Positions 43,224 to 56,974 of a DNA stretch of 64,000 bases are shown here, one piece after another. This DNA is from Blastocatellales bacterium. Lineage in GTDB: Bacteria > Acidobacteriota > Blastocatellia > RBC074. Both the position numbers and the translations under genes were made by a program. Each line of letters opens with the position of its first letter. Position 1 is the first letter of the stretch. The notes under the pieces were generated by a model, which saw only the letters and a list, made by a program, of their open reading frames with translations, was not told the DNA's origin and did no database searches. The stretch lies in the NCBI GenBank assembly GCA_050187295.1, contig JBFWXQ010000006.1, positions 110,296 through 174,295 of the forward strand, read 5' to 3'.

Positions 43224-46200
43224 TTACCTTTGGCGAAGTCGCTGTTGATTTCGCTTTATGCGTTCAACGTTGCTCGCTCGTATCGCTGAATCGGCGAGTT
43301 CTTCTACAAGAATTTTTTGAGGCTCTGGCAAGGATAAAGGTGTACCTGACAGCAATTTTTTCAATACTTCGTAGGTTTCTCTTCGTTTCAACAACCCCTG
43401 GCTCATGGCTTCCTGCGCATCAAAAGTCAACAGACAATCGAGGCACGCCAGTTCACAGCGTTGATGATGCTCTTCGCTTCTGAAAAGAATTTTCTGCGCT
43501 TCTTCCATCCATTGCCTTCCCATCCCTAACAATTCACGGACGTGACCGGCGCCTCCAGGTACGTTGTCATAAATTACTGCTCCCCATTCGTTGGCTTGAC
43601 AACCGACACCGGTCAGCATCACTCCTAGTTCACGTGTGTCCAATTCGAGCAGCTGTGCTCCAGCAATTTGCAATGCTTGCGCCAGTGTCCGGATAATCGC
43701 TTCTTCTTTGGCCAACAGTGACAAACTGCCTTCAAACGTCAGCAACAGAATGTCTGTAGTTTCGCGCGCCGCCAATGTACGATTGCGCAGCACTGGTGCT
43801 CCTTCATTGGGCTGCCAACAAACGTAATGCTCTTTGGCGGCAGTCAGCGGCGCGTGTGTGGCAAAACCCGAAGGCAGATTTTGCCGCCCCTCACCCGTCT
43901 TAACCTCCGCATCAGCGTAACCGCATTTCAGACAAACGGCGAAGCCGCGCCCGCGCGCCACCAGTTTAAGGGTGTCGTTATCGTCTTCTTCCCAAATCGC
44001 TCCGCTGTTGTACACCAGTAATTCGCCTGCTTCGCGGTAACGCGCGGCAAGGCCGTTCACGCCGGCAAAATGCGCATGCGTTTCCACTTCATTTGCCTGA
44101 TTGCCAAAACAAATTGTCGCGCGTTCGACGCTGCCGATACGCTCCACATCCGTGCTGCGACGCGGCGGATCCCAGGCCGCGCTGCTGAAACCATGCTTAG
44201 GCAACAACATTGGTTGTTCGTTTTGTCTGGCCGCGCTGCCGCAAATCGGACAGGCTCCTAATGGGCGAGAGATTTCGTAATAGAAATGTTTGTTCGCGCA
44301 TTCGGTGAAATGCCCGGTCAGCCCGACGTAGTTGTCAATCGCCAACCCCGTCCAATGTTTGCGCAGTCCGCGCGAAGTAATCAATTTGCCGCCCACCAGC
44401 AATTGCGACCCCGGCACATACTCGCGCAGCGCCATCAAGCCCGGACGTTCCAACCGGAACTGATCTTCTTCACGAATGCGCGTGCGCTCGCCATCGCGAC
44501 TGCCTTCGTCCGGGCGGATCACTTGCAGCTTTTGCAAGCCGATGGGGAAACCGTAACGCGGCAGAAACTGCCGGTCGGCCAAGGCTTCGATCACCGTAGT
44601 GTCGTAAAGCGCGGACAACTGGTAACGGATTGCGTTGGCCTGTCGCTGCGAAAGAGCGTCCCGCCAGGTTTGCAACAATTCGTCATAATCTTCACGCCAA
44701 TCGCACACGGCGTCTTGAAACTGTTCGATCATGGAATTAATACAGGCGCGCCAATCGCCTATTAACGCAAGTGGCGTATGCTGAAGCAATGATTCCAAAA
44801 TCGGCCGATACTGCTTTTCACCCGCGTCGCTCACCCAGCGCAGAAAATCCAGAAAATGCGGCTCCAGACCAGGTTCATTTTGCTCCGGTCGCCACCAGTT
44901 TGTTCGCGCCGGCGGTTGCCAATCTGCTGAGGGCGAACGCAACTCTGGCTTATCGAAACCGGATGTCCATTTTTGCGGCTGCGCTGTGCCGCAAAATGCG
45001 CCCATGCTGCCAAAAGCGCGCATTGCGCCAACCTGCGCGCCGGGCGGATATACATCCTGAAAAAATTTGCCGAGCAGCAGTGCGTGACAGTGGCGCCGTG
45101 CAATGCGTTGCCGGTCGAGCAATACGCGCGGGCTGCGCAGAGTACGTCCGAGGTAATCGCCGAATTGAAAAAACACTGCGCGGTCAAATGGTCGCGGGCG
45201 TGCATACGTCAAAACCACTGATGAACCATCAGCGCGGCGTCCGGCGCGCCCGGCGCGTTGCAGGTAATTGGCTTTGCCCGGGGGCACATTGCCCATCAGC
45301 ACTGCGTTCAGGCCGCCGATGTCAATGCCGAGTTCAAGAGTCGTCGTGGCGCTGAGGATGTTGCGCGCGCCGAGTTTGAACAATTCCTGCAACTGGCGGT
45401 TCTGTTTGGGGCTGAGTTGTGCGCTGTGTTCTTCCGCCCACAGCGCGATTTCAAAAATAGGCGAACGCTGCAATTCCGTTCGCAAGCGTCCGTAGCGTGG
45501 ATCACTGTCGAGTTGTTTCGCCGTCACCGGTTGCAAATCGTTGCAACCCAATTCCGGCGCGCAGCCAAACACAGAACGCGGCCAGATATGGCGTGTTTGG
45601 GCAGATTGAAACCATTGTTCCGGGCGGCGCAATCCGAGCGAGGGGAAGTTCAATCGCAATGCCAAAGCCTGGCCGCCATCCGTTTGTCGCGTGTCAGTTT
45701 CAAGCCAGGGCAATTCGCCCGCGTGTTGGCACAGCGCGCGGAACGCAGCACGCAACGCATCGCGCGAAAATTCCTCGATTAACGCTTCCTCCAATCCGCA
45801 ATTCTTCAACACTTGCGCCGCAAACCAGCGTCGCCGCTGATCCGCTTCCACTCCAACAAAACGTATAACCCAATTGCGTCGCGCCTGCTCTTCGGCAGCC
45901 CAGCGGCCAACAAAAACGCGGTTGAAAGCCCAGGTGCGGTCTTCTTCCGGCGACCCAAGCGTGATGACACCGTCTGACCGCAGCGAATCGCACAGCGCCG
46001 CCAGAAAGTCCCGCCAGCAAACTGTGAAATGCGCACGCACTTCGGCAGGCAAATTGCCCAGCAATTGATTTGGCGCTTCGATTTGTTCCAGACCAGGGTA
46101 CGTGACTTCAAGCAAGCCCAGCGTTTCGACTGATACTGCGCGCCGCAACGGACTGGCCAATTCTCGTCCAATCAACGACCGCAGCCGTGTTTTGACGGCG

Positions 46201-48608
46201 GCAAAATTTAGTTCTCGGATTTGTTCAGCGCGTTCGGTCCAGTCTTTGGCTTCGTATGAATTGATTGTGTCCGGATCAATCACGTCGGTCAGGATTGTTT
46301 GCTGTGCCAACGCCGCCTCCCAATCTTCCAACGCACCGCCCGCTTGATGCTCACGCAATTCCTGACGTAATTCGTCGAGCTTCTTTTCCCAACGGCGGCG
46401 CTGTTCCGGTTGCGTAGCACGCTTCTGTAATTTTTGTTCGTAATCGGCAATATCCAACTCAATATCCGCGATGGTGGCAGCGCTCGAAGGCGAACTTTGC
46501 TGCGCGCAGCGAGCCAGTGCCGCACGTACCAACTGCGTTTCGTGTTGCAAGGTCAGGCGCGGGCCGAGCCGCGCGGCTTCCTGACGGCTGTCGCTGAAAG
46601 CCAGCAAGCGACGTCCGCGCGCGGGCAGCCGTTTCCTGTGCGCGGTGGGGAATTCGGGCATATCAGCCAAGGCTGTTTCCGCCAGAATCGCCAACGTTAA
46701 AGGAGCTGATGCGACAAACGGGCGCCAGGCGTCATCTCCTTTCGCTTCGCAGCAAGGGCAACTGTTAATTTGATACAACGCCAAGCCAGAGGCTGCGTGC
46801 TCACTTGTTCGCACGTCCAGAATTTGCCTGCCGCTTTCGCGCGCGCCACGCCAATCGAAGAATCGCTTCTTGCCGTACCGGTCGTCAGCCACGGGTAACA
46901 AACGCAGATTCGCTTCCTGCGCCGCCAAGGCCACTTCGCCGCAATTGGCGCAGCGATAAAGCGATAGTGTCGCGCTATTGCAGTGAAGGCAATGATCGCT
47001 AAAACCGGCCAGCACATCGCCTAGCCCCGGCAGCTTTAAATTTTCGTTGCCGGTGCAATCCGCGTTCAGACAAACCACCAACCCATCCGTTGGTCGCGCC
47101 AGCAAATGCAGACGATGGGGCAGCAACGGGTAATCGCCGATGTTTCGTCGTGCTGCTGCGCCCAATTGCAAGATCGTAATCGTTGCGCGCAAGGCGTTTT
47201 CGCTGTCTTCACGCCACAACGCCGAGGCCAGTTCGCGCAATGGCAGACGCTTCCGCTCCCACAAAATTTCGGAAGCCTGATGCACGATTTTCGCGTGTGA
47301 CAGCGATTGATGGAGCAGCAATGCGGGCTGATCGCCAGCTTGTCGCTGCGCATCGTTGACCGCCGCCGCAGCCACCAACCGCGGCAATCGCGTTGCCAAA
47401 TGCGCACAGTCATCAGCATCGGTCGCCAGTTGCGGCTTGCCTTCGGCGTCTATCGTCAGCGTCGCAGCCGTCAACCAGGCTTCTTGCGCCAGCATTGCGC
47501 AATCAGGCACGTGCGCCGGATCGGCAACTTCCGCTAACTCAATGCGACGTTGTTGTCCGCGAATGACATTGACCAATTCCGGCGGTTTGCTGAAAAGCGT
47601 GGCCGCGAATTGACGCAATTCTTCGTCGCCGTCCGCGCCTTCGCGGCCAATCGTGGCGGATGTGGCAATGTGCAGCAATTGTTCGGCGCGCACGCCGCAG
47701 CGTTCCGTCAGCCGCCGCAACAACAGGGTGATTTCCGCCGCCAGTGTGCCTGTGTACAAATGCGCTTCGTCCAGCACCACTGTTCGCAGCGCATCGCCGA
47801 AAAAGACCGCGTCCTGGGGGCGGCAGAGCATGTATTCAAGCATCGAGTAGTTGGTAATCAGGATGTCCGGCGCGCGACCAAAGGCCGCGTCGCTCGGCGA
47901 AAGCTTTTGTCCCTTGTGATCCTCAAGCCCGCGCGCTTCTTTTCGCGTGCGTTTGCGGCAAGGATTCCATTCGGTGATGTCTTGATCGTTTGCTGCGCGG
48001 TGGTCTTCTGGAGTTTCGCTGGTGAAGTGGAACAGCGTCACGTCGTTTTGGTCTTGCAGCCATTGGTAAAGCCGATCCATTTGATCGTTCACCAGCGCGT
48101 TCATCGGATACAGGATGATGCACTTGACGCCTGTACCTGTGCCGCGATTGGCGAACAAATCATTGAGCGCCGGGAGCAGAAAGCTTTCCGTTTTGCCCGC
48201 GCCTGTGCCTGCCGTGACGACCAGCGCCGGGCGCGAATGATCGTTGTGAAGCTGTTGCGCCTGGCGAATGGCTTCGAGTTGGTGTGTGTAAAGCTGCCGG
48301 TTGCGCGGCACAGCGTTATCGTGATCCAAATAATTTGTCAGCGTCGCATCAAACAATCCTTGCCGCGCCAGTGAATCCAGCGTCTCGGTTGAGGTTGCCG
48401 CCGGAAACGCGCCTTCCACCCATAACTCACTAACCAACCCGCCGGATTCCGCTGGCCCTGCCCAGAGACTGCGACAAATTTCCGTCAACCTCGGTTCGCG
48501 CACGAAATTGCGATCCAGCGAAAATTCGACCAAGCGGTCGCGTAGGTTATTAGCGAAGGAAAACGCATCGAGTTGAGCAAGATTTCTTTGTTCATTCTGC
48601 TGAGTCAT
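43224..48608 (-). CDS. Large SF2 DEAH-box helicase with C-terminal DUF1998 (DruE/YprA-like)
   Basis: Motifs LYTHQ, TAGTGAGKTE, YPMNALVNDQ, DEAH, TSAT, FSDSRQ, HSAQL, TTTLELGIDIG, QRAGRAGRR, FLPRYGFP and ALREYVPG. DUF1998 signature YDNVPGGAG...CELACLDCLL. Confidence 0.9.
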   Translation of the reverse strand: MTQQNEQRNLAQLDAFSFANNLRDRLVEFSLDRNFVREPRLTEICRSLWAGPAESGGLVSELWVEGAFPAATSTETLDSLARQGLFDATLTNYLDHDNAVPRNRQLYTHQLEAIRQAQQLHNDHSRPALVVTAGTGAGKTESFLLPALNDLFANRGTGTGVKCIILYPMNALVNDQMDRLYQWLQDQNDVTLFHFTSETPEDHRAANDQDITEWNPCRKRTRKEARGLEDHKGQKLSPSDAAFGRAPDILITNYSMLEYMLCRPQDAVFFGDALRTVVLDEAHLYTGTLAAEITLLLRRLTERCGVRAEQLLHIATSATIGREGADGDEELRQFAATLFSKPPELVNVIRGQQRRIELAEVADPAHVPDCAMLAQEAWLTAATLTIDAEGKPQLATDADDCAHLATRLPRLVAAAAVNDAQRQAGDQPALLLHQSLSHAKIVHQASEILWERKRLPLRELASALWREDSENALRATITILQLGAAARRNIGDYPLLPHRLHLLARPTDGLVVCLNADCTGNENLKLPGLGDVLAGFSDHCLHCNSATLSLYRCANCGEVALAAQEANLRLLPVADDRYGKKRFFDWRGARESGRQILDVRTSEHAASGLALYQINSCPCCEAKGDDAWRPFVASAPLTLAILAETALADMPEFPTAHRKRLPARGRRLLAFSDSRQEAARLGPRLTLQHETQLVRAALARCAQQSSPSSAATIADIELDIADYEQKLQKRATQPEQRRRWEKKLDELRQELREHQAGGALEDWEAALAQQTILTDVIDPDTINSYEAKDWTERAEQIRELNFAAVKTRLRSLIGRELASPLRRAVSVETLGLLEVTYPGLEQIEAPNQLLGNLPAEVRAHFTVCWRDFLAALCDSLRSDGVITLGSPEEDRTWAFNRVFVGRWAAEEQARRNWVIRFVGVEADQRRRWFAAQVLKNCGLEEALIEEFSRDALRAAFRALCQHAGELPWLETDTRQTDGGQALALRLNFPSLGLRRPEQWFQSAQTRHIWPRSVFGCAPELGCNDLQPVTAKQLDSDPRYGRLRTELQRSPIFEIALWAEEHSAQLSPKQNRQLQELFKLGARNILSATTTLELGIDIGGLNAVLMGNVPPGKANYLQRAGRAGRRADGSSVVLTYARPRPFDRAVFFQFGDYLGRTLRSPRVLLDRQRIARRHCHALLLGKFFQDVYPPGAQVGAMRAFGSMGAFCGTAQPQKWTSGFDKPELRSPSADWQPPARTNWWRPEQNEPGLEPHFLDFLRWVSDAGEKQYRPILESLLQHTPLALIGDWRACINSMIEQFQDAVCDWREDYDELLQTWRDALSQRQANAIRYQLSALYDTTVIEALADRQFLPRYGFPIGLQKLQVIRPDEGSRDGERTRIREEDQFRLERPGLMALREYVPGSQLLVGGKLITSRGLRKHWTGLAIDNYVGLTGHFTECANKHFYYEISRPLGACPICGSAARQNEQPMLLPKHGFSSAAWDPPRRSTDVERIGSVERATICFGNQANEVETHAHFAGVNGLAARYREAGELLVYNSGAIWEEDDNDTLKLVARGRGFAVCLKCGYADAEVKTGEGRQNLPSGFATHAPLTAAKEHYVCWQPNEGAPVLRNRTLAARETTDILLLTFEGSLSLLAKEEAIIRTLAQALQIAGAQLLELDTRELGVMLTGVGCQANEWGAVIYDNVPGGAGHVRELLGMGRQWMEEAQKILFRSEEHHQRCELACLDCLLTFDAQEAMSQGLLKRRETYEVLKKLLSGTPLSLPEPQKILVEELADSAIRASNVERIKRNQQRLRQR

Positions 48609-48623
48609 TGTTTGGCTCCGGAA

Positions 48624-51600
48624 TTAAAGGTTTTGGAGAAGGTGCAAGGTCAACAGCCGTCGCAGCGATGCGTGACGAACGGCCAACGCTAAATTATTCT
48701 CGTGTACTGGTTCCAGGTTGGGTTGTGTCAAAGCGGTTGTCGCTCGCGCCAAAATGCCCTGAGTAATAAAGGGCTGAGCGAGGTTCAAATCAGTGGCGGC
48801 AGCGGCAAGCAAAGCGTTTTTGGCATGGTTGACGTTTGGGCCGCCCGCGAAATGTCGGCGCAATTGTTCCAAAAGGATGCTGCGGTGCGGATGCTGCCAA
48901 ACGCGCAGCACTTTGGCTAAGAGCAACGGATCAATGTTGGCCAGTCGTTTGGCCGCATCAATCAGATAGTCCGATAGTTCTTCGTCGCTGTCCACTTCTG
49001 CCAGGGCAAACAACGTTTGGCGCGCTGTTTCAGCATCCGGCTGCCATTCGCGCAGCAAGGTTCGCAGCGCGGACAACCAGGTTTCATTGCACGGCGGCGT
49101 TTCCAATCCTTCCGGCAAGGCTTCGTCCAGCAGCCAAGCGCGCAGAAAGGCGACGGAGTGTTGAGGAATCAACGAACGCAAGACTGCCAGCGCATCTGGT
49201 TCCAGCAACGGCAGATGAAACCAGCGAATCAGTGCTGCTGTTTGTCGGGCATCTTGCATAGTTAATTCGGAAAGCGCCTGTATCCAGCGACGTTCTGGCC
49301 ACCATGCACCCAGCCTTGCACCTGCGAAGGCCACAGCCACAGCCAGCGGCTCGGTGCAATCGTCCGGCAAGTCGCACACCCACCACCAAGCGTCTTCGGC
49401 GGCATCGCTGGTTTTTGGTATTAGCGAAATCAGTTTGCCGCTTGCATCCCACCACCACACTGCATATTGCTCGTCCGGTTGGATTCGCTGGTGAAGTTGC
49501 AAGCGAATCAGCCGCGCTGTGCCGTTGGGCAATGATTCGCAAATTGCATCAGCCACGATACCGGTGTTGACGACGCTTCCGGCTACCCACAACGAGCGAC
49601 TAGCCGGAGAAAAGTTGAACATTTGCCGGACGCGCAGGGGAGCGCCCCAGCCGTGCAATTCCCCCAAAGAGCCGATGCGGCGCGGCGTTCGATGCGATAC
49701 GCCATCACCTTCAAACAAGAAAAGCTGATTGAGGTTCAAGGCTTGTGTTCCCCAATTGGCAGGAACAGCAAGTTTGAATAAATCGCGTTTGGCCTGCTCG
49801 ACGGTCAATCGGCTGTGTTTGTTGAGTGGTTGCCAACCTTCTGTTGTTAGATGGGCGGCTCCAACGACTTTCAATTTTACCGGTCGCCGGATGGAGCATC
49901 GCTGTTCGTTTTTTTGCAGGCCGATTCGAATGTCCAATTGGCTCGCATCCAGTTCAGGAGTAATGATGAGCGGCCCGGCAATGGTCGTGGCCTGCCCGTC
50001 CGGTTTGAGTTCGACTGCGCTCCCACGGCAGCGGGCGTAACGAACAGACACTTCAGGTGGATGAATGATCTTGATCTGAAACTTTCTGCCCCAAACGATG
50101 TCGCGGTCATCCCCTGGGAAAACTCCAACCTGGTTGGCCCAAACCGGAACGCCAGCGGTTTGTTGCAGATTCGGAGTCCATAGCAATTCACCATTGAGCG
50201 ATGCGCGAAGTTGTGTCGGCCAACTGCCGGCAGGCAAACGGTACAGTTTGGCTTGTTGCAAATCGGTCAATTGCCATTCGTTTGGGTGCGGTTCGATGGT
50301 CAAGTCCGCGGCGGTCAGCAGCGCATAGGAGCTATTCACGCTCAGATTCGCAGCGTAAGCGTCGGGCAAACGCGCGCCTGACGGCAAACGGTAAAGCACT
50401 ACGTCTTCATCCCTCGGCCAGCATTCCAGATCGCAACTGGCAACGGTTTCGCCTTTTGCGTTGACCAGACTGGCTATGACAGTCGGTTGATCGAAGGGAA
50501 GAACGACAGTTCGCGATTGCGCTGGCGAATAACTGCCGTTTGGCTGTTGCAGCAATCGCTCCGTCAGTCGCCCGCCAATCCATACATCGTAAAAAGCTTC
50601 GCTCAGGTTCAAGGCCGGATTGACCACAAGCTGACAGGTGAAATGCGGCGCGCCGCCATCATGCCAGCGCAACACAGGCTGCGTGATGAACGACTCGGGC
50701 AGCGGCGTATCTTCGCTCGGCGTGATGGCGGATGCTGTTGCCAGCGTCATCGCATCGTCAACCCATTCGGGCAACAGCCAGGGACTGTTTTCCAGCTTTG
50801 ACCGCGCCTGTTCCGGGGAAAGCGATTTGAATCGGAGCGCCTGCAAGTCTTGCCACAATTGCCGAAAACTTTCGCTGTCTTGCCGCAATGCTTCGACGGT
50901 TTGCGGCGGTTGCCCATCCAGCCAATCTGGCAGCCGCTGCCGTAAGCCGCGATGCGTAAAGCCGAATTGCAGAAAGACTGTGTTGACCCAGCGTTGCGTC
51001 CCGAGTTGATCCAGAGCGTGACGCAAATGAAAACGGTTGACGGCGGCTCGCAACAGATTGCGCAGTAGTTCCGTGGGTTGTCCTTGCGTAAACAACAGGC
51101 TTTGCGTTTCGGCTTCGTTTGAAACAGTTGGGTCGAAATGCCCTGTGGCGACGCACGGCCACAGTTCACCATCCACAGTTTTACGTCGTCCGGTTTCGCT
51201 CAACCAGAACAGCAGCAAAAGTCCAATGGCCTCGTCTCGTCTGACCTTTCCTGCGGCAGTGTCAAAGCTTGCGTCATTCGTGGCGCGTTCTTGGAGCGTC
51301 GCCGGGTCCAGCCGCTTCAACCAAACGCGCAACCAGATGAAGTCGTAATCGCTCGGTTGTAATTCAGTCAATGACCAGCATTCGCGCCCGATTTGTTGCG
51401 CATCCGCACGAGCGTTGAGCGCACGAACGGCATTGCCGGTCGCCATCAACAAAGCCTGGCTTTCATCCAAATCAACCGCGGCAAAAATATCCTGACTCTT
51501 CCCGCTCGATTGAATAAGCGCGTTAGAAGTGACTGGCAAAGCAATCGGCAACGGCGGCTGCGCGGCGCATAAAGCGGAAACCATTGGATCAATCCATTGT

Positions 51601-52286
51601 GGTAAACACCAAGGGCTTTCTGCCAATCGTTGGCGGAAAATTTCTACAGACAGAGAGTCGTCTTGGTAGGCTCTGCATGATTCCCAGAATTGTTGAAACA
51701 AGCGACTGCCTGTTTGTGGGTCCAACAATGCTTTGATAACGACGGGTCTCTCAATGCCCATCAGCCAACCTGACAATCGGTGCGTGATGTCTTTTCCGGT
51801 AAAACCTATTTGCGCAAAGACAAGTTTGCGCAGGCAGTCATGATCGAGATCATTTCTGGCACAAGCGCCTCGTAACCGAAGTTTTCGAGCGGCTTCGATC
51901 AAAGCCTGCCGATGAAAAGCCGATAGATCATCACCGTCAAAAAGCTCAGAGCGAGTTTGCGTCGAAAATAAAATTGACGCAGGAACAAACCAATCGCTAT
52001 CACGCGGCAAGCAGCGCCGAGTGTATTCTGATGCGAAAAGCAACAACAGGCTGCCGAATGCGGCACGATGTGGCGGCGATAGCTGCCAACGTCTGACCAT
52101 GCCTGCATCGAGATTTGATGACCAGTCAATCAACCAACATAGGTCATCATCATCAGCACCTAATTCGGCCAACGACCAAACAGAAGAACCATGTTTTAGA
52201 TCGCGAACCAGGCGAGCGATAATCTGACAGGCATCACGCAACGTTAGATCATCAGATTTGGCGGCAAGCTGGGAGAAGATTTTCAT
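48624..52286 (-). CDS. 1220-aa protein of unknown function, co-transcribed partner of the helicase (DruH-like position)
   Basis: Uninterrupted 3.66-kb ORF ending 15 nt before the helicase start. It has a duplicated N-terminal helical domain, a beta-rich middle and a helical C-terminus. Confidence 0.8.
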   Translation of the reverse strand: MKIFSQLAAKSDDLTLRDACQIIARLVRDLKHGSSVWSLAELGADDDDLCWLIDWSSNLDAGMVRRWQLSPPHRAAFGSLLLLFASEYTRRCLPRDSDWFVPASILFSTQTRSELFDGDDLSAFHRQALIEAARKLRLRGACARNDLDHDCLRKLVFAQIGFTGKDITHRLSGWLMGIERPVVIKALLDPQTGSRLFQQFWESCRAYQDDSLSVEIFRQRLAESPWCLPQWIDPMVSALCAAQPPLPIALPVTSNALIQSSGKSQDIFAAVDLDESQALLMATGNAVRALNARADAQQIGRECWSLTELQPSDYDFIWLRVWLKRLDPATLQERATNDASFDTAAGKVRRDEAIGLLLLFWLSETGRRKTVDGELWPCVATGHFDPTVSNEAETQSLLFTQGQPTELLRNLLRAAVNRFHLRHALDQLGTQRWVNTVFLQFGFTHRGLRQRLPDWLDGQPPQTVEALRQDSESFRQLWQDLQALRFKSLSPEQARSKLENSPWLLPEWVDDAMTLATASAITPSEDTPLPESFITQPVLRWHDGGAPHFTCQLVVNPALNLSEAFYDVWIGGRLTERLLQQPNGSYSPAQSRTVVLPFDQPTVIASLVNAKGETVASCDLECWPRDEDVVLYRLPSGARLPDAYAANLSVNSSYALLTAADLTIEPHPNEWQLTDLQQAKLYRLPAGSWPTQLRASLNGELLWTPNLQQTAGVPVWANQVGVFPGDDRDIVWGRKFQIKIIHPPEVSVRYARCRGSAVELKPDGQATTIAGPLIITPELDASQLDIRIGLQKNEQRCSIRRPVKLKVVGAAHLTTEGWQPLNKHSRLTVEQAKRDLFKLAVPANWGTQALNLNQLFLFEGDGVSHRTPRRIGSLGELHGWGAPLRVRQMFNFSPASRSLWVAGSVVNTGIVADAICESLPNGTARLIRLQLHQRIQPDEQYAVWWWDASGKLISLIPKTSDAAEDAWWWVCDLPDDCTEPLAVAVAFAGARLGAWWPERRWIQALSELTMQDARQTAALIRWFHLPLLEPDALAVLRSLIPQHSVAFLRAWLLDEALPEGLETPPCNETWLSALRTLLREWQPDAETARQTLFALAEVDSDEELSDYLIDAAKRLANIDPLLLAKVLRVWQHPHRSILLEQLRRHFAGGPNVNHAKNALLAAAATDLNLAQPFITQGILARATTALTQPNLEPVHENNLALAVRHASLRRLLTLHLLQNL

Positions 52287-52545
52287 GACGGCTCAGACAA
52301 AATTTGCTCCTCATCTTTACGATGAAAGATGAATAAGCAATCGCTTTGGTGGGGCACGAATTTCGAGAAGGGGGCACGGTTGAGTTATATGCACTCGCTG
52401 GGTCAGCAGTTCGGGCGAGCCAGTTAAGTCTATCTTGATTCTTAAAACCAGAGCAATAGTTTAGTCGGGTTGTAGCTAATAATTACTAAAAACGCCCTCT
52501 CTTGCGTTGCGAGATTTTGTGATGAGCGACATAATTTGTCGCGCC

Positions 52546-53037
52546 ATGAAACTCTTCAGCATCGGTCACAGCAACGCGACGATTGATTTCTTTCTCAATC
52601 TGCTTCGGCGGCATGAAATTGCCGTTTTGGTGGATACGCGCAGCCAGCCGTACAGCCGTTACAATCCGCATTTCAGACGCGAAGCGCTGAAACAATCCGT
52701 CCATCAACAAGGCATCGAATATGTCTATCTGGGCAATCGCATTGGCGGGCGGCCCGAAGGCGAAGAGTTTTATTTCCAATCCGGCAAGGTGGATTATGAC
52801 GCGGTGGCCGAATCGCCGGAGTATCTGGCGGGCATTGACCAATTGCTGGCGCTGGCCGAACATCGCCGCGTCGCGTTTCTGTGCAGCGAAGCCGATTACA
52901 AACATTGCCATCGGTATTGGCTGATTACCCGCACGCTGACCCGCCGCGGCATCGAAGTCGAACACATTCTGCATTCGGGCGAAGCCGTCAAATCTTCGGC
53001 GGCGGAATTTGAACCGGCGCAGCCGAGCCTTTTCTAA
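52546..53037 (+). CDS. DUF488 family protein (copy 1)
   Basis: Motifs FSIGHS, LVDTRSQPYSR, YLGNRIGGRP and LCSE....CHR. An alternative start is ATG 52522. Confidence 0.88.
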   Translation: MKLFSIGHSNATIDFFLNLLRRHEIAVLVDTRSQPYSRYNPHFRREALKQSVHQQGIEYVYLGNRIGGRPEGEEFYFQSGKVDYDAVAESPEYLAGIDQLLALAEHRRVAFLCSEADYKHCHRYWLITRTLTRRGIEVEHILHSGEAVKSSAAEFEPAQPSLF

Positions 53038-53046
53038 AGCAACGCT

Positions 53047-53484
53047 ATGGCCACGGTCTTCACCATCGGATTTACCAAAAAGAGTTTGCGAGAGTTTGTC
53101 GAAAGCTTGCGAGCCGCTGGCGTACGCAGAATCATAGACGTGCGGCTTCGCAATACGTCGCAGCTTGCCGGGTGGAGCAAACAACCGGATTTCGCTTATT
53201 TGCTGGAATCTGGATTCGGCATTGCGTATGAACATCATCCCGAATTTGCGCCGACGGATGACATCCTGGACGCTTACAAAAACGGCGCGGATTGGGCGAA
53301 ATACGAAACACAGTTCAACGAGTTATTGAAAGCGCGCGCGCCGCAAACCCAAGCGCGCGAATTGCTGGCCAAAGAAGCCATTTGTCTGCTCTGCGCCGAA
53401 CCCACACCGGAGCGTTGTCATAGGCGGCTGGTAGCCGAATACCTGCGCGAGCTTCAGCCTGAAACGGAAATCAAACATCTGTGA
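53047..53484 (+). CDS. DUF488 family protein (copy 2, different subtype)
   Basis: Motifs FTIGFTKK, IDVRLRNTSQLAG and LLCAE....CHRRLVAEYL. Confidence 0.88.
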   Translation: MATVFTIGFTKKSLREFVESLRAAGVRRIIDVRLRNTSQLAGWSKQPDFAYLLESGFGIAYEHHPEFAPTDDILDAYKNGADWAKYETQFNELLKARAPQTQARELLAKEAICLLCAEPTPERCHRRLVAEYLRELQPETEIKHL

Positions 53485-54206
53485 GCACGGTCAAGGACAT
53501 CACCATTCTGGCGTTGACCAAAATGCACGGCGGAGTTTGCACGGCGGGAATTGACGCCGAAGGCCGCTGGGTGCGCCCGGTGCGGCCTCGCACCGAACAA
53601 CGACCTTCGCGCGAAGGCGTTTCGGATTACAGTTTGTTGCCGCTGGATTTCTTTCACGGCGGAAAATCGCATCTGGTCAATCTGGGCGTGACGCGATTTC
53701 AATTTTCCGACGCTGCGCCGCATCCGCCGCACGTCGAAGATTGGACGATTGATATGAGTCACAAACCCGAACACCTGAACAAACTCAGCGAAACAGAGCA
53801 GGCGCAGTTTCTGGCTGCGCACGCGGAAGACGATCTTGCGCCGCTCTGCCATCGTCACGAACGTTCGCTGATGCTCGTTCAACCCGACGGCTTTTCGTTT
53901 TCCTTCTGTCCGAATCAAACGGGCGACGACGTTTTGGTTCGGGCTTCGTTCGATTTGCGCGACGAAAGTTTTGCCGACATTGGCTGCACCGATTTGCGAA
54001 TGCGCGCGCTGGGGCGAAAGCTGCTGGCCAAAACCGGCGGCGGCAACGTTTCGCTGACCGATGCGGATTTCCGGCGACGCGGAAAGCAAACGACGTATTT
54101 GACGCTGGGATTGTCGCGGCTGTTTCAAAACAAACACTGGCTGATTCTGGTCGGCGTGCATTCGCTGCCGGAACTGGCCGTAGAGATTGATTACAATCAT
54201 CTTTGA
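53481..54206 (+). CDS. Dual OB-fold-like protein
   Basis: N-terminal ILALTKMHGGVCTAG...WVRPV and C-terminal YLTLGLSR motifs resemble the dual-OB family found beside DUF488 genes. The GTG start overlaps the upstream TGA. Confidence 0.6.
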   Translation: MSTVKDITILALTKMHGGVCTAGIDAEGRWVRPVRPRTEQRPSREGVSDYSLLPLDFFHGGKSHLVNLGVTRFQFSDAAPHPPHVEDWTIDMSHKPEHLNKLSETEQAQFLAAHAEDDLAPLCHRHERSLMLVQPDGFSFSFCPNQTGDDVLVRASFDLRDESFADIGCTDLRMRALGRKLLAKTGGGNVSLTDADFRRRGKQTTYLTLGLSRLFQNKHWLILVGVHSLPELAVEIDYNHL

Positions 54207-54216
54207 TCGTTCGGCC

Positions 54217-56448
54217 ATGCCTGACCTTGAACGCGCGTTGCGCGAACAATTTGGTTTTGATTCGTTTCGCCCGAACCAGCGCGAAGTGATCGAGCACGTG
54301 TTGGCGGGGCGGCATACGTTGGCGGTGTTGCCGACTGGGTTGGGCAAATCGTTGTGTTACCAATTGCCAGCGCAGTTGTTGCCGGGATTGACGCTGGTCA
54401 TTTCGCCGCTGATTGCGTTGATGCAGGATCAGGTGGAGGCTTTGTTGCGGCGCGGGTTTAGCAACGTCACCAGTTTGAGCAGCGCGCTCAGCCCGGCGGA
54501 ATTAGGACGACGATTGAGCGAAATCGAAAGCGGCCAGCACAAACTGGTTTATGTCGCGCCGGAGCGTTTCGATTCGCCGCGTTTTCGGCAACTGGTGCGG
54601 CAATCGGAACTTTCGCTGGTGGTGATTGACGAAGCCCATTGCATCAGCCAATGGGGACACGATTTTCGTCCGCATTACCGGACTTTGTTGGCGCGGTTGC
54701 CGGAATTGCGGCGCGCGACGTTTCTGGCGGTGACGGCGACGGCGACGCTGGAAGTGCAAAACGACATTGCGGCGACGTTGAGTTTGCCGTCGTTGGAACG
54801 AGTCATCGCCGATTTCGACCGCCCCAACCTGCGATTGGAAACCATCAAGGCCGACCAGCGCGAAGACAAAGACAAGCAATTGATCGAAATGTTGAAGCGT
54901 GAACCGGGCGCGGCGATTGTTTACGCCAGCACGCGCAAAGAAGCGGCCACCGCGCATCAATTGTTGCTGCAATCGGGAATTGACGCGACGTTGTATCACG
55001 CGGGACTCAGCGCCAGTCAGCGCGCCGAAGCCCAACAACGATTTTTGCAGGATGAATGCCGCATCATCGTGGCGACTGTCGCTTTCGGACTTGGGATAGA
55101 CAAACCGAACGTGCGGCGGGTGATTCATTACAATGTGCCGGGTTCGCTGGAGAATTATTACCAGGAAGCCGGGCGCGCCGGACGCGACGGCGACGCGGCA
55201 ATTTGCACGTTGTTTTATTCGCAATCCGATGTGCGAACGCAGCGTTTTTTGCTGGATCAGGCGTACCCAGAATCAAAAGTGGTTGGGCGGCTTTACGGCC
55301 TGTTGCGCGAAGCCGCGCCGCTGGCGGTGGCCGTGGGCGATTTGGCGACGGCCAGCGAGACGCCGGAAATTGCGGTCAACGCCGCGTTGCAATTGCTGCA
55401 CGAACAAGGTCACATCGCATTGACCGCCGACGGCAAATACGCGATGCCTGAACAGGACGACGTTGATTGGAAGCCGGATGTCCGCGAATTGAATGCGCGC
55501 CGTTTCAGAGCGAACGAACGACTGAAAAAGATGATCGCTTATGCGCTGGATCAAAGATGCCGTCGCGCGGCGATTCTGGGTTATTTCGGCCAGCGATTTT
55601 CGCCGCCGTGCGGAACGTGCGATGTCTGTGACGCGAAAACGTCCGAGCATCCATTGCCGATTGAGGTCATTGCTCGTCAAACGCCGAATCATAAAGCTCG
55701 ATTGATTTTGCAAACTGTCGCAGAATTGAAAGGGCGTTATGGACGAACGCTGGTTGTGGAATTGCTCACCGGCAGCAAACGTAAAAGAATTTTTGAACTT
55801 GGCCTGGATCGTTCGCCAAATTACGGGGCGTTGAGCGCTTGTCGGCAGGATCAGGTTTTGGAATGGGTGGACGGCCTTGTCGCGCAACAGCTTCTGCAAG
55901 TGACCGCAGAAGAATATCCGCGGCTGCTGATTACTGAAGCTGGTTGTCGCCGTTTGGAGTCAGAGGCTCAAGCGCCATCAGCCGACCAGGAACAGAATGC
56001 CAGCTTGGTTCCGAAAGGCGAAGTGTTGTTTTCAGACACTGTCACGGCGGCTGAGAAAACTTACAGAATTGGTGTGGAGCAAACCGCCGACGGATCGCGT
56101 TGTCTGGTCATAGCCGAAGAGTCTGCGACTGAGCCTGTTGGCACAATCGCGCGAATGGTGATTTCTGAAAACGACGCAGAAGAGTTTTGTCGGAGCCTGA
56201 AGACGGCGCTGCAACTGCTGGGGTTGGAACAGAGTCAGGCGCGGAAACGCCAGGACGAGATTAAACGGCAGTACGCGAAAGCTTACGAGAGATGGGAACC
56301 GGAGGAAGATCGTGCATTGAAAAACGGGTTCAAGGATGGGATCAGCATCAACAGATTGGCAGCGACCTTTCAGCGACAGCCAAGCGCTATTAGATCGCGG
56401 CTGACAAAGCTGGGATTGCTACAGTCCGACGGTCAGGAAGACGATTGA
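54217..56448 (+). CDS. recQ: RecQ family helicase with non-canonical C-terminus
   Basis: Motifs [67 protein letters not shown], Zn site CRR...CGTCDVC and an RQC domain. No HRDC seen. Confidence 0.9.
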
Positions 56449-56471
56449 GATCAACGCGGAGAGATATTTTG

Positions 56472-56951
56472 ATGAGTGAACTGAAACAAGTTGTGATTTA
56501 CACGGACGGAGCTTGTTCCGGCAATCCGGGGCCGGGCGGTTATGGTGCAGTGTTGTTATTCAACGGGCATCGCAAGGAATTGTCAGGAGGTTTTCGCCGC
56601 ACGACAAACAATCGAATGGAATTGCTCGGCGCGATTGAAGCTTTGCGCGCGTTGAAAGAAAGTTGCTCGGTCAAACTGCACACCGATTCGCAATACATCG
56701 TCAACGCAATTGAAAAAGGTTGGGCGAAACGCTGGCAGGCGAACGGCTGGATGCGCAACAAGAAAGAGAAAGCCGTCAACCCGGATTTGTGGGAACAGTT
56801 GTTGACGCTGTGCCAACAGCACAAAGTCGAATTCGTCTGGGTCAGGGGGCACAACGGGGACAAGGAAAATGAGCGCTGCGATCGGTTGGCGGTGGCTGCC
56901 GCTCAGCAACCGAATCTGCCCGCCGACGACGTTTACGAAGGCAGCAGTTAA
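56472..56951 (+). CDS. rnhA: Ribonuclease HI
   Basis: Motifs [33 protein letters not shown] and WVRGH...NERCD. Confidence 0.96.
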
Positions 56952-56954
56952 TTA

Positions 56955-56974
56955 CGCGGACGGGGACGTCCGCG
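56955..56974. terminator. Perfect 8-bp GC hairpin between convergent genes (REP-like or bidirectional terminator)
   Basis: CGCGGACG-GGGA-CGTCCGCG. There is no clear U-tract, so REP-like character is as likely as an intrinsic terminator. Confidence 0.45.

Follow-up and report, generated by a model that had tools for sequence, protein, structure and literature searches.

The window, a 64,000-nucleotide (nt) stretch of contig JBFWXQ010000006.1 from a Blastocatellales bacterium (genome of 7.49 Mb in 75 contigs), contains five open reading frames (ORFs) packed on the plus strand within positions 52546-56951. They encode two DUF488 proteins, a tandem-OB protein (DuOB), a RecQ-family helicase (RecQ2), and ribonuclease HI (RNase HI, rnhA), and are arranged as follows.

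52546-53037, plus strand: DUF488a, 163 amino acids (aa); PF04343 at 87.2 bits; PADLOC PDC-M45B at 9.1e-51
53047-53484, plus strand: DUF488b, 145 aa; DUF488-N3a paralogue, accessory, 9-nt gap after DUF488a
53481-54206, plus strand: DuOB, 241 aa; accessory, GTG start, 4-nt overlap with DUF488b
54217-56448, plus strand: RecQ2, RecQ-family helicase, 743 aa; accessory, 10-nt gap after DuOB
56472-56951, plus strand: rnhA, RNase HI; 23-nt gap after RecQ2; RNase_H (PF00075) at 158.9 bits

An earlier note on this DNA had described five tightly packed genes with these gaps and domains, which the ORF listing and the Pfam matches confirm, and had taken all five as a dedicated module. The comparison with relatives favours a composite operon instead, which probably consists of a four-gene nucleic-acid-processing module followed by a housekeeping rnhA gene.

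A pattern scan with one genome per species yields 31 DuOB loci, 26 of which have enough downstream sequence to be usable. In every one of these 26 loci, a RecQ-family gene lies directly 3' of DuOB, and DUF488a and DUF488b lie 5' of it. The usable loci span Acidobacteriota, Chloroflexota, and Armatimonadota, with DuOB identity down to about 34%, and the array helicase of Chloroflexota and Armatimonadota is a protein of 890-1064 aa with an N-terminal TPR extension. Judged by this gene order, DUF488a-DUF488b-DuOB-RecQ2 is one conserved unit. No RNase H is found within 8 kb of any array outside the genus. Thus, the association proposed in the earlier note stands for the DUF488 pair, DuOB, and RecQ (26/26 loci of the clade), but not for rnhA outside the genus. 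In an unbiased sample of 301 Acidobacteriota genomes, DuOB is present in 11. DuOB adjoins the DUF488 pair at eight of the ten remaining loci of the phylum and one DUF488 gene at the other two, and all ten lack RecQ and RNase H nearby. The flanks at three of these ten loci are ordinary (AMP-binding ligase, TRAP transporter, and RuvB). The lack of RecQ at the ten loci suggests that the triad of DuOB and the two DUF488 genes is the general core, and that the link to RecQ is specific to the DuOB clade of the window.

The rnhA product passes the NF001236 RNase HI equivalog model (213.8 bits, cut-off 160), and no other PF00075 match is found in the genome. The gene is present in 18 of 21 same-genus genomes with 82-88% identity. 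Eight same-genus genomes that lack the DUF488b-DuOB-RecQ2 cassette have the order FdhF-DUF488a-rnhA-cupin-GMC, with a few nucleotides between DUF488a and rnhA. Thus, rnhA follows DUF488a directly in relatives without recQ2, which is the kind of arrangement that the earlier note itself had named as speaking against its proposal. The cassette, DUF488a, and rnhA are located on three different contigs in G004, and inserted genes split rnhA off by 3.4 kb from DUF488a in G012 and by 3.7 kb from RecQ2 in G010. According to this distribution, rnhA is a housekeeping gene resident at the operon tail, which adjoins the module only in this genus and is not a conserved module member. It is probably co-transcribed by position, as the 3' end of whatever precedes it.

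RecQ2 has the Pfam domains DEAD, Helicase_C, RecQ_Zn_bind, and RQC and is of the DEAH type. Pfam detects no HRDC in RecQ2 of the window, and gives no match for its C-terminal 160-aa tail (window 55960-56448). This tail is variable; orthologues (L093, L094, L098, L047) have either HRDC and HEAT_2 or HEAT_2 alone. RecQ2 passes the RecQ-family subfamily model TIGR00614 (408.9 bits, cut-off 219.8) and remains under the cut-off of the recQ equivalog model TIGR01389 (507.5 bits, cut-off 640.2). The genome holds two RecQ-family genes, and the other RecQ is 40% identical to RecQ2. This other RecQ is near-universal among 41 relatives; it ends in HTH_40, not HRDC (G000 contig 21, L001). Orthologues of RecQ2 (60-79% identical) are found in about eight of these relatives; all of them adjoin DUF488 genes, and all except those of G015 and G022 adjoin DuOB as well. 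By this distribution, RecQ2 is an accessory paralogue dedicated to the DUF488-DuOB module.

Two DUF488 subtypes that both keep C-x-E...C-H-R had been noticed earlier, and these motifs are conserved in the alignments of both paralogues. PF22751 (DUF488-N3a, the active N3 subclade) passes only in DUF488b (46.7 bits, cut-off 27). DUF488a is filed only as general DUF488, because its PF22751 score (23.2 bits) is under this cut-off. DUF488b also matches PF04343 (81.8 bits) and PADLOC PDC-M45C (4.8e-49), and has the motifs TIGF, D-x-RL-x-NTS-x-LAG, CLLC-x-E, and CHRR. The motifs of DUF488a are IGHSN, D-x-RS-x-PYSR, and C-x-E-x-D...CHR, and are intact in both solo and array-linked copies. The C-terminus of DUF488a is QPSLF, and Q-x-x-[LM]-F is found at the extreme C-terminus of nearly all RecQ-linked and solo orthologues. 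The beta-clamp-binding consensus is a terminal QL[SD]LF-type pentapeptide. The QPSLF tail resembles it and is a putative beta-clamp-binding peptide.

Of the 21 same-genus genomes, 19 have DUF488a, which also occurs in further genera of the family and, in G028, in a second family of the class. Its ratio of nonsynonymous to synonymous substitution rates (dN/dS) is about 0.15 where it stands alone and 0.19 where it is linked to the array. The natural deletion variants among the relatives are solo DUF488a, DUF488a with RecQ2, and the cassette without a nearby DUF488a; therefore DUF488a can presumably function alone. Its distribution and conservation mark DUF488a as a core gene in both the genus and the family, functional without the cassette.

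In the AlphaFold model of DUF488b (pLDDT 87.5), the CLLC strand is followed by a loop and the CHRR helix. The best Foldseek matches of this model in the PDB are the PTP-fold phosphatase SsoPTP (probability 0.90), the RsmI and borosin methylases, PRL-1, and RapZ-C, with E values of 0.05-0.09. Burroughs and Aravind reportedly united, in 2023, the PTP, diphthine-synthase-like methylase, and RapZ-C folds in a rhodanese-phosphatase superfamily. The fold expected for this superfamily is Rossmannoid, and a loop that bears the Cys links a strand to a helix. A phosphatase/rhodanese-type fold, to which the earlier note had assigned DUF488 as established, is thus weakly backed by the matches to a PTP-fold phosphatase, RsmI-type methylases, and RapZ-C. 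A ParB/Srx fold for DUF488, for which a paper on ParB-CTPase fusions had given a lead, was considered and rejected: Foldseek gave no ParB match, and this paper mentions no more than a DUF488-HTH fusion partner. A PDB sequence search with DUF488a, DUF488b, and DuOB gave nothing significant, and nothing mechanistic was found in the literature on DUF488, DuOB, and PDC-M45.

DuOB matches PF22557 with 66.8 bits (cut-off 27) over profile positions 1-210, and matches PADLOC PDC-M45A (3.4e-9) only with residues 1-110, its N-terminal half. It is present in 7 of the 41 relatives, six of them among the 20 other same-genus genomes and one from another genus. The DuOB model is all-beta with two barrels (pLDDT 70.8), and its best PDB match is POT1 bound to single-stranded DNA (E of 6.5e-4, but with a TM-score of only 0.18). 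The invariant His and Cys residues of DuOB include H16, C20, H59, H64, H84, C169, H219, and H227, and two of the conserved motifs, MHGGVC and DFFHGG-SH, are located in the lowest-confidence loops of the model. These residues and loop motifs hint that DuOB may bind a metal or ligand in addition to its OB-type binding.

DUF488b-DuOB-RecQ2 is located between DUF488a and rnhA in the window, in G010, G011, and G014, and in three metagenome contigs, whereas G015 has DUF488a-RecQ2-rnhA without DUF488b and DuOB. At least five further genomes or contigs from the genus share the five-gene order of the window, so that chance does not explain the arrangement. The trees of RecQ2 and DUF488a agree, in that the same three in-genus groups are nested among array-bearing Blastocatellia. 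In another genus, the array is located between FdhF and cupin, and rnhA is absent. In G028, which belongs to the other family of the class, a 61-aa frameshifted DUF488b remnant follows DUF488a (L087:6979-7737), and the arrays of L067, L070, and L072 are decayed, with DuOB and RecQ genes fragmented or fused. Because the trees are concordant, another genus has the array without rnhA, and the G028 remnant and the decayed arrays exist, the favoured history is that the four-gene array is ancestral in the family, and that DUF488b-DuOB-RecQ2 was lost repeatedly while DUF488a was retained. Insertion of the cassette into an ancestral DUF488a-rnhA pair is less likely than loss, because DUF488a of the genus nests within array-linked DUF488a of other genera, and because decay remnants exist.

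The five genes are flanked downstream by convergent cupin and GMC oxidoreductase genes, and further upstream by an FdhF/YdeP-type oxidoreductase gene. By the names of its homologues, the bacterium belongs to the Blastocatellia of the phylum Acidobacteriota. Between FdhF and the module lies a Druantia III-like pair, which consists of a 1794-aa DruE helicase and a 1220-aa protein without a family match. The pair and the module are divergent across a shared 259-bp intergenic region. The features that occupy this neighbourhood in the window and in its relatives are as follows.

43224-52286, divergent from DUF488a: Druantia III-like pair (DruH-DruE); DruE3 at 5.6e-227 (PADLOC)
FdhF-rnhA interval of G011, G012, and G020: Type ISP restriction-modification (R-M) enzyme, 1073 aa
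FdhF-rnhA interval of G007 and L093: Dcm, HATPase protein, and Vsr
FdhF-rnhA interval of L096: Dcm and HNH protein
L042:10512-13750, directly beside rnhA in G004: OLD-family ATPase/TOPRIM and UvrD-like helicase (Gabija-like)
FdhF-rnhA interval of L098: Fic gene, with a PIN gene beyond cupin

The gene contents of these relatives indicate that the FdhF-to-rnhA interval is a defence-island hotspot. Because other genomes have R-M, Gabija-like, or toxin-antitoxin genes at the same spot, the Druantia III-like pair appears to be one interchangeable resident of this hotspot and not a partner of the module. The three closest arrays, those of the window, G014, and L095, are the only ones that it adjoins, and it is not beside the module in G010, G011, G004, L093, L096, L098, and other genera. 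A functional link between the module and Druantia is rejected, because their co-occurrence is confined to the closest relatives, and the tie to the adjacent helicase system suggested in the earlier note is therefore incidental. The druH-proximal half of the 259-bp region (window 52287-52430) is almost invariant in three genomes, and the DUF488a-proximal half is less conserved. The invariant half may be a regulatory or 5'-UTR (untranslated region) element of the Druantia-like operon.

The signals that may delimit the transcript are a predicted promoter and a hairpin.

52507..52535, plus strand: sigma-70-like promoter from a consensus scan; TTGCGA, 17 nt, CATAAT
56955..56974, no strand assigned: GC-rich hairpin of 8 bp; CGCGGACG, loop GGGA, CGTCCGCG; between rnhA and the convergent cupin gene

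The predicted promoter ends 10 nt 5' of the ATG of DUF488a, and no Shine-Dalgarno sequence is read before this ATG. The position of the promoter implies that the DUF488a transcript is leaderless or near-leaderless. The CATAAT hexamer is unchanged in the window, L095, and G014, which have the same divergent druH-like neighbour; the -35 hexamer TTGCGA of the window recurs in L095 and reads TTGCCA in G014, and the spacing between promoter and ATG is maintained in both relatives. The terminator scan gives no terminator-like site at any of the four gene junctions. The hairpin is a candidate for the operon end; it is not called by the terminator scan, because a T-tract is absent after it. The locus is found in public DNA metagenomes only. 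Two public RNA runs contain one identical 272-nt contig (window 56155-56426, inside recQ2) and fragments from relatives; this contig is the sole direct sign of recQ2 transcription in nature. The 259-bp region 5' of DUF488a contains neither TTTCGGT nor a GAAC...GTTC-type palindrome when checked for these two candidate motifs of SOS control. The upstream region of lexA (L099:1360-1460, G000 contig 11) contains TTTCGGT three times as a direct repeat and once inverted (ACCGAAA), and these repeats are a possible LexA operator of the lineage.

From the domains present, the four-gene module would act as follows. RecQ2 would unwind DNA, and thereby yield single-stranded DNA or expose ends. The tandem-OB protein DuOB would hold the exposed single strand or 3' end. 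DUF488a and DUF488b, with their cysteine motifs and phosphatase-type fold and possibly as a heteromer, would transfer or remove a phosphoryl- or sugar-type group at the terminus of DNA or RNA, and the QPSLF tail of DUF488a would tether this chemistry to clamp-loaded DNA, such as that at forks and repair gaps. The outcome may be either chromosome repair or phage restriction. Vertical inheritance, the core status of the clamp-tailed DUF488a, and the ordinary flanks elsewhere argue for repair.

Several points weigh against the composite operon and the mechanism outlined for its module. The start of rnhA overlaps the stop of RecQ2 by 4 nt in two same-genus contigs, and in G014, which has the normal rnhA downstream, another RNase H gene separates DuOB from RecQ2:

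L045:11004-11462, minus strand, G014: second gene with an RNase H domain (PF00075 at 71 bits); 153 aa, with 42% identity to rnhA

Moreover, rnhA is always coupled to the gene before it. Thus, rnhA may be more than a bystander. The mechanism follows domain logic; the clamp-binding reading of QPSLF is by motif resemblance only, and in those triads of the phylum that lack RecQ, DUF488a does not have the motif at its extreme C-terminus. The structural matches are weak both for DUF488b (Foldseek E about 0.05) and for DuOB with POT1 (TM-score 0.18). The choice of loss over gain leans on poorly resolved flank trees and saturated synonymous divergence (dS). The public RNA, one 272-nt contig inside recQ2, is too little to show the predicted co-transcription.

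If all five genes, including rnhA, form one dedicated module, this module would link unwinding, and the removal of RNA:DNA hybrids at R-loops and stalled forks, to end-healing or to the removal of adducts. The tight spacing without an internal terminator, the recurrence of the order in the genus (at least six genomes or contigs), the overlap of rnhA with RecQ2 in two contigs, the independent presence of a second RNase H inside the array of G014, and the short distance between rnhA and DUF488a in the cassette-less genomes are all consistent with this explanation. It is nevertheless unlikely, since rnhA belongs to the core genes, encodes the only RNase HI of the genome, is absent from the arrays of other genera and phyla and from the ten other DuOB loci, is unlinked from both the cassette and DUF488a in G004, and is separated by inserted genes from DUF488a in G012 or RecQ2 in G010. 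The dedicated module of the earlier note therefore survives as the DUF488 pair, DuOB, and RecQ2, and loses rnhA. A somewhat more doubtful variant is that the genus-wide coupling of DUF488a to rnhA and the second RNase H of G014 reflect function rather than position. DUF488a would then be a hitherto unrecognised, clamp-tethered housekeeping replication or repair enzyme that, in this lineage, acts together with RNase HI at RNA-DNA junctions or the termini of R-loops, and DUF488b-DuOB-RecQ2 would be an optional extension to the processing of stalled forks or foreign DNA.

The four-gene module may alternatively be an anti-phage defence system, a defence-island cassette in which PDC-M45 with a helicase would recognise and disable the ends or replication intermediates of invading DNA. 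This possibility is the strongest of the alternatives, though we consider it less likely than not. The triad matches the predicted PADLOC candidate PDC-M45, its spread is patchy (DuOB in 7/41 relatives and 11/301 genomes of the phylum), and the hotspot at the locus holds, in this genus, Druantia III, Type ISP R-M, Dcm/Vsr, Gabija-like OLD and UvrD, Fic, and PIN genes. However, PDC-M45 is itself only a guilt-by-embedding prediction, inheritance in the family looks vertical with losses and not mobile, DUF488a belongs to the core genes, is under purifying selection, and has a clamp-like motif, ordinary genes flank the triad in other Acidobacteriota, and the module contains no nuclease or other obvious effector. 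That the genes are unrelated neighbours gathered by island dynamics, with RecQ2 as an ordinary repair helicase without a functional tie to DUF488 and DuOB, is very improbable. The locus is highly plastic, G015 has RecQ2 without DUF488b and DuOB, and the ten other DuOB triads of the phylum have no RecQ nearby, but this explanation is largely refuted by the adjacency of RecQ in 26/26 loci of three phyla with DuOB identity to about 34%, and by the RecQ2 orthologues of the 41 relatives, which are never found away from DUF488 genes. The composite operon, a four-gene module with a housekeeping rnhA at its tail, is favoured overall.

DUF488 and DuOB are widespread families, and this locus indicates that the DUF488 pair, DuOB, and a dedicated RecQ belong together, to the exclusion of rnhA and Druantia. 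The helicase partner and the putative clamp-binding tail provide handles for bench work. The locus also calls for caution in annotation, because a housekeeping gene that borders a defence hotspot can mimic an operon-encoded member of a system. The triad is already known, as it is catalogued in Pfam (DuOB and DUF488-N3a) and as the predicted PADLOC system PDC-M45. New here are the composite nature of the five-gene operon, the natural partial-deletion variants, the core status of DUF488a, and the hotspot context.

PDC-M45 is one of 145 predicted defence candidates obtained by guilt-by-embedding (Payne et al. 2024, bioRxiv 10.1101/2024.01.29.577857). The module resembles it in that DuOB (M45A) is adjacent to two different DUF488 genes (M45B and M45C), and these genes match the system contiguously. 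It differs from PDC-M45, which has no helicase, in that the DuOB clade of the window has a dedicated RecQ-family helicase, and the gene order in the window is B-C-A, in contrast to A-B-C in several triads of Acidobacteriota. Druantia type III is a separate system from the module despite its adjacency. RecQ2 shares the DEAH core, the Zn-binding domain, and RQC with the bacterial RecQ of the E. coli type (TIGR01389), but differs from it by its score under the equivalog cut-off, the absence of HRDC, the variable tail, and the accessory status. The likeness to the RapZ-C/DUF488/DUF4326 clade lies in the Pfam matches to DUF488-N3a and DuOB, the conserved Cys/His/Arg motifs, and the best fold matches of DUF488b.

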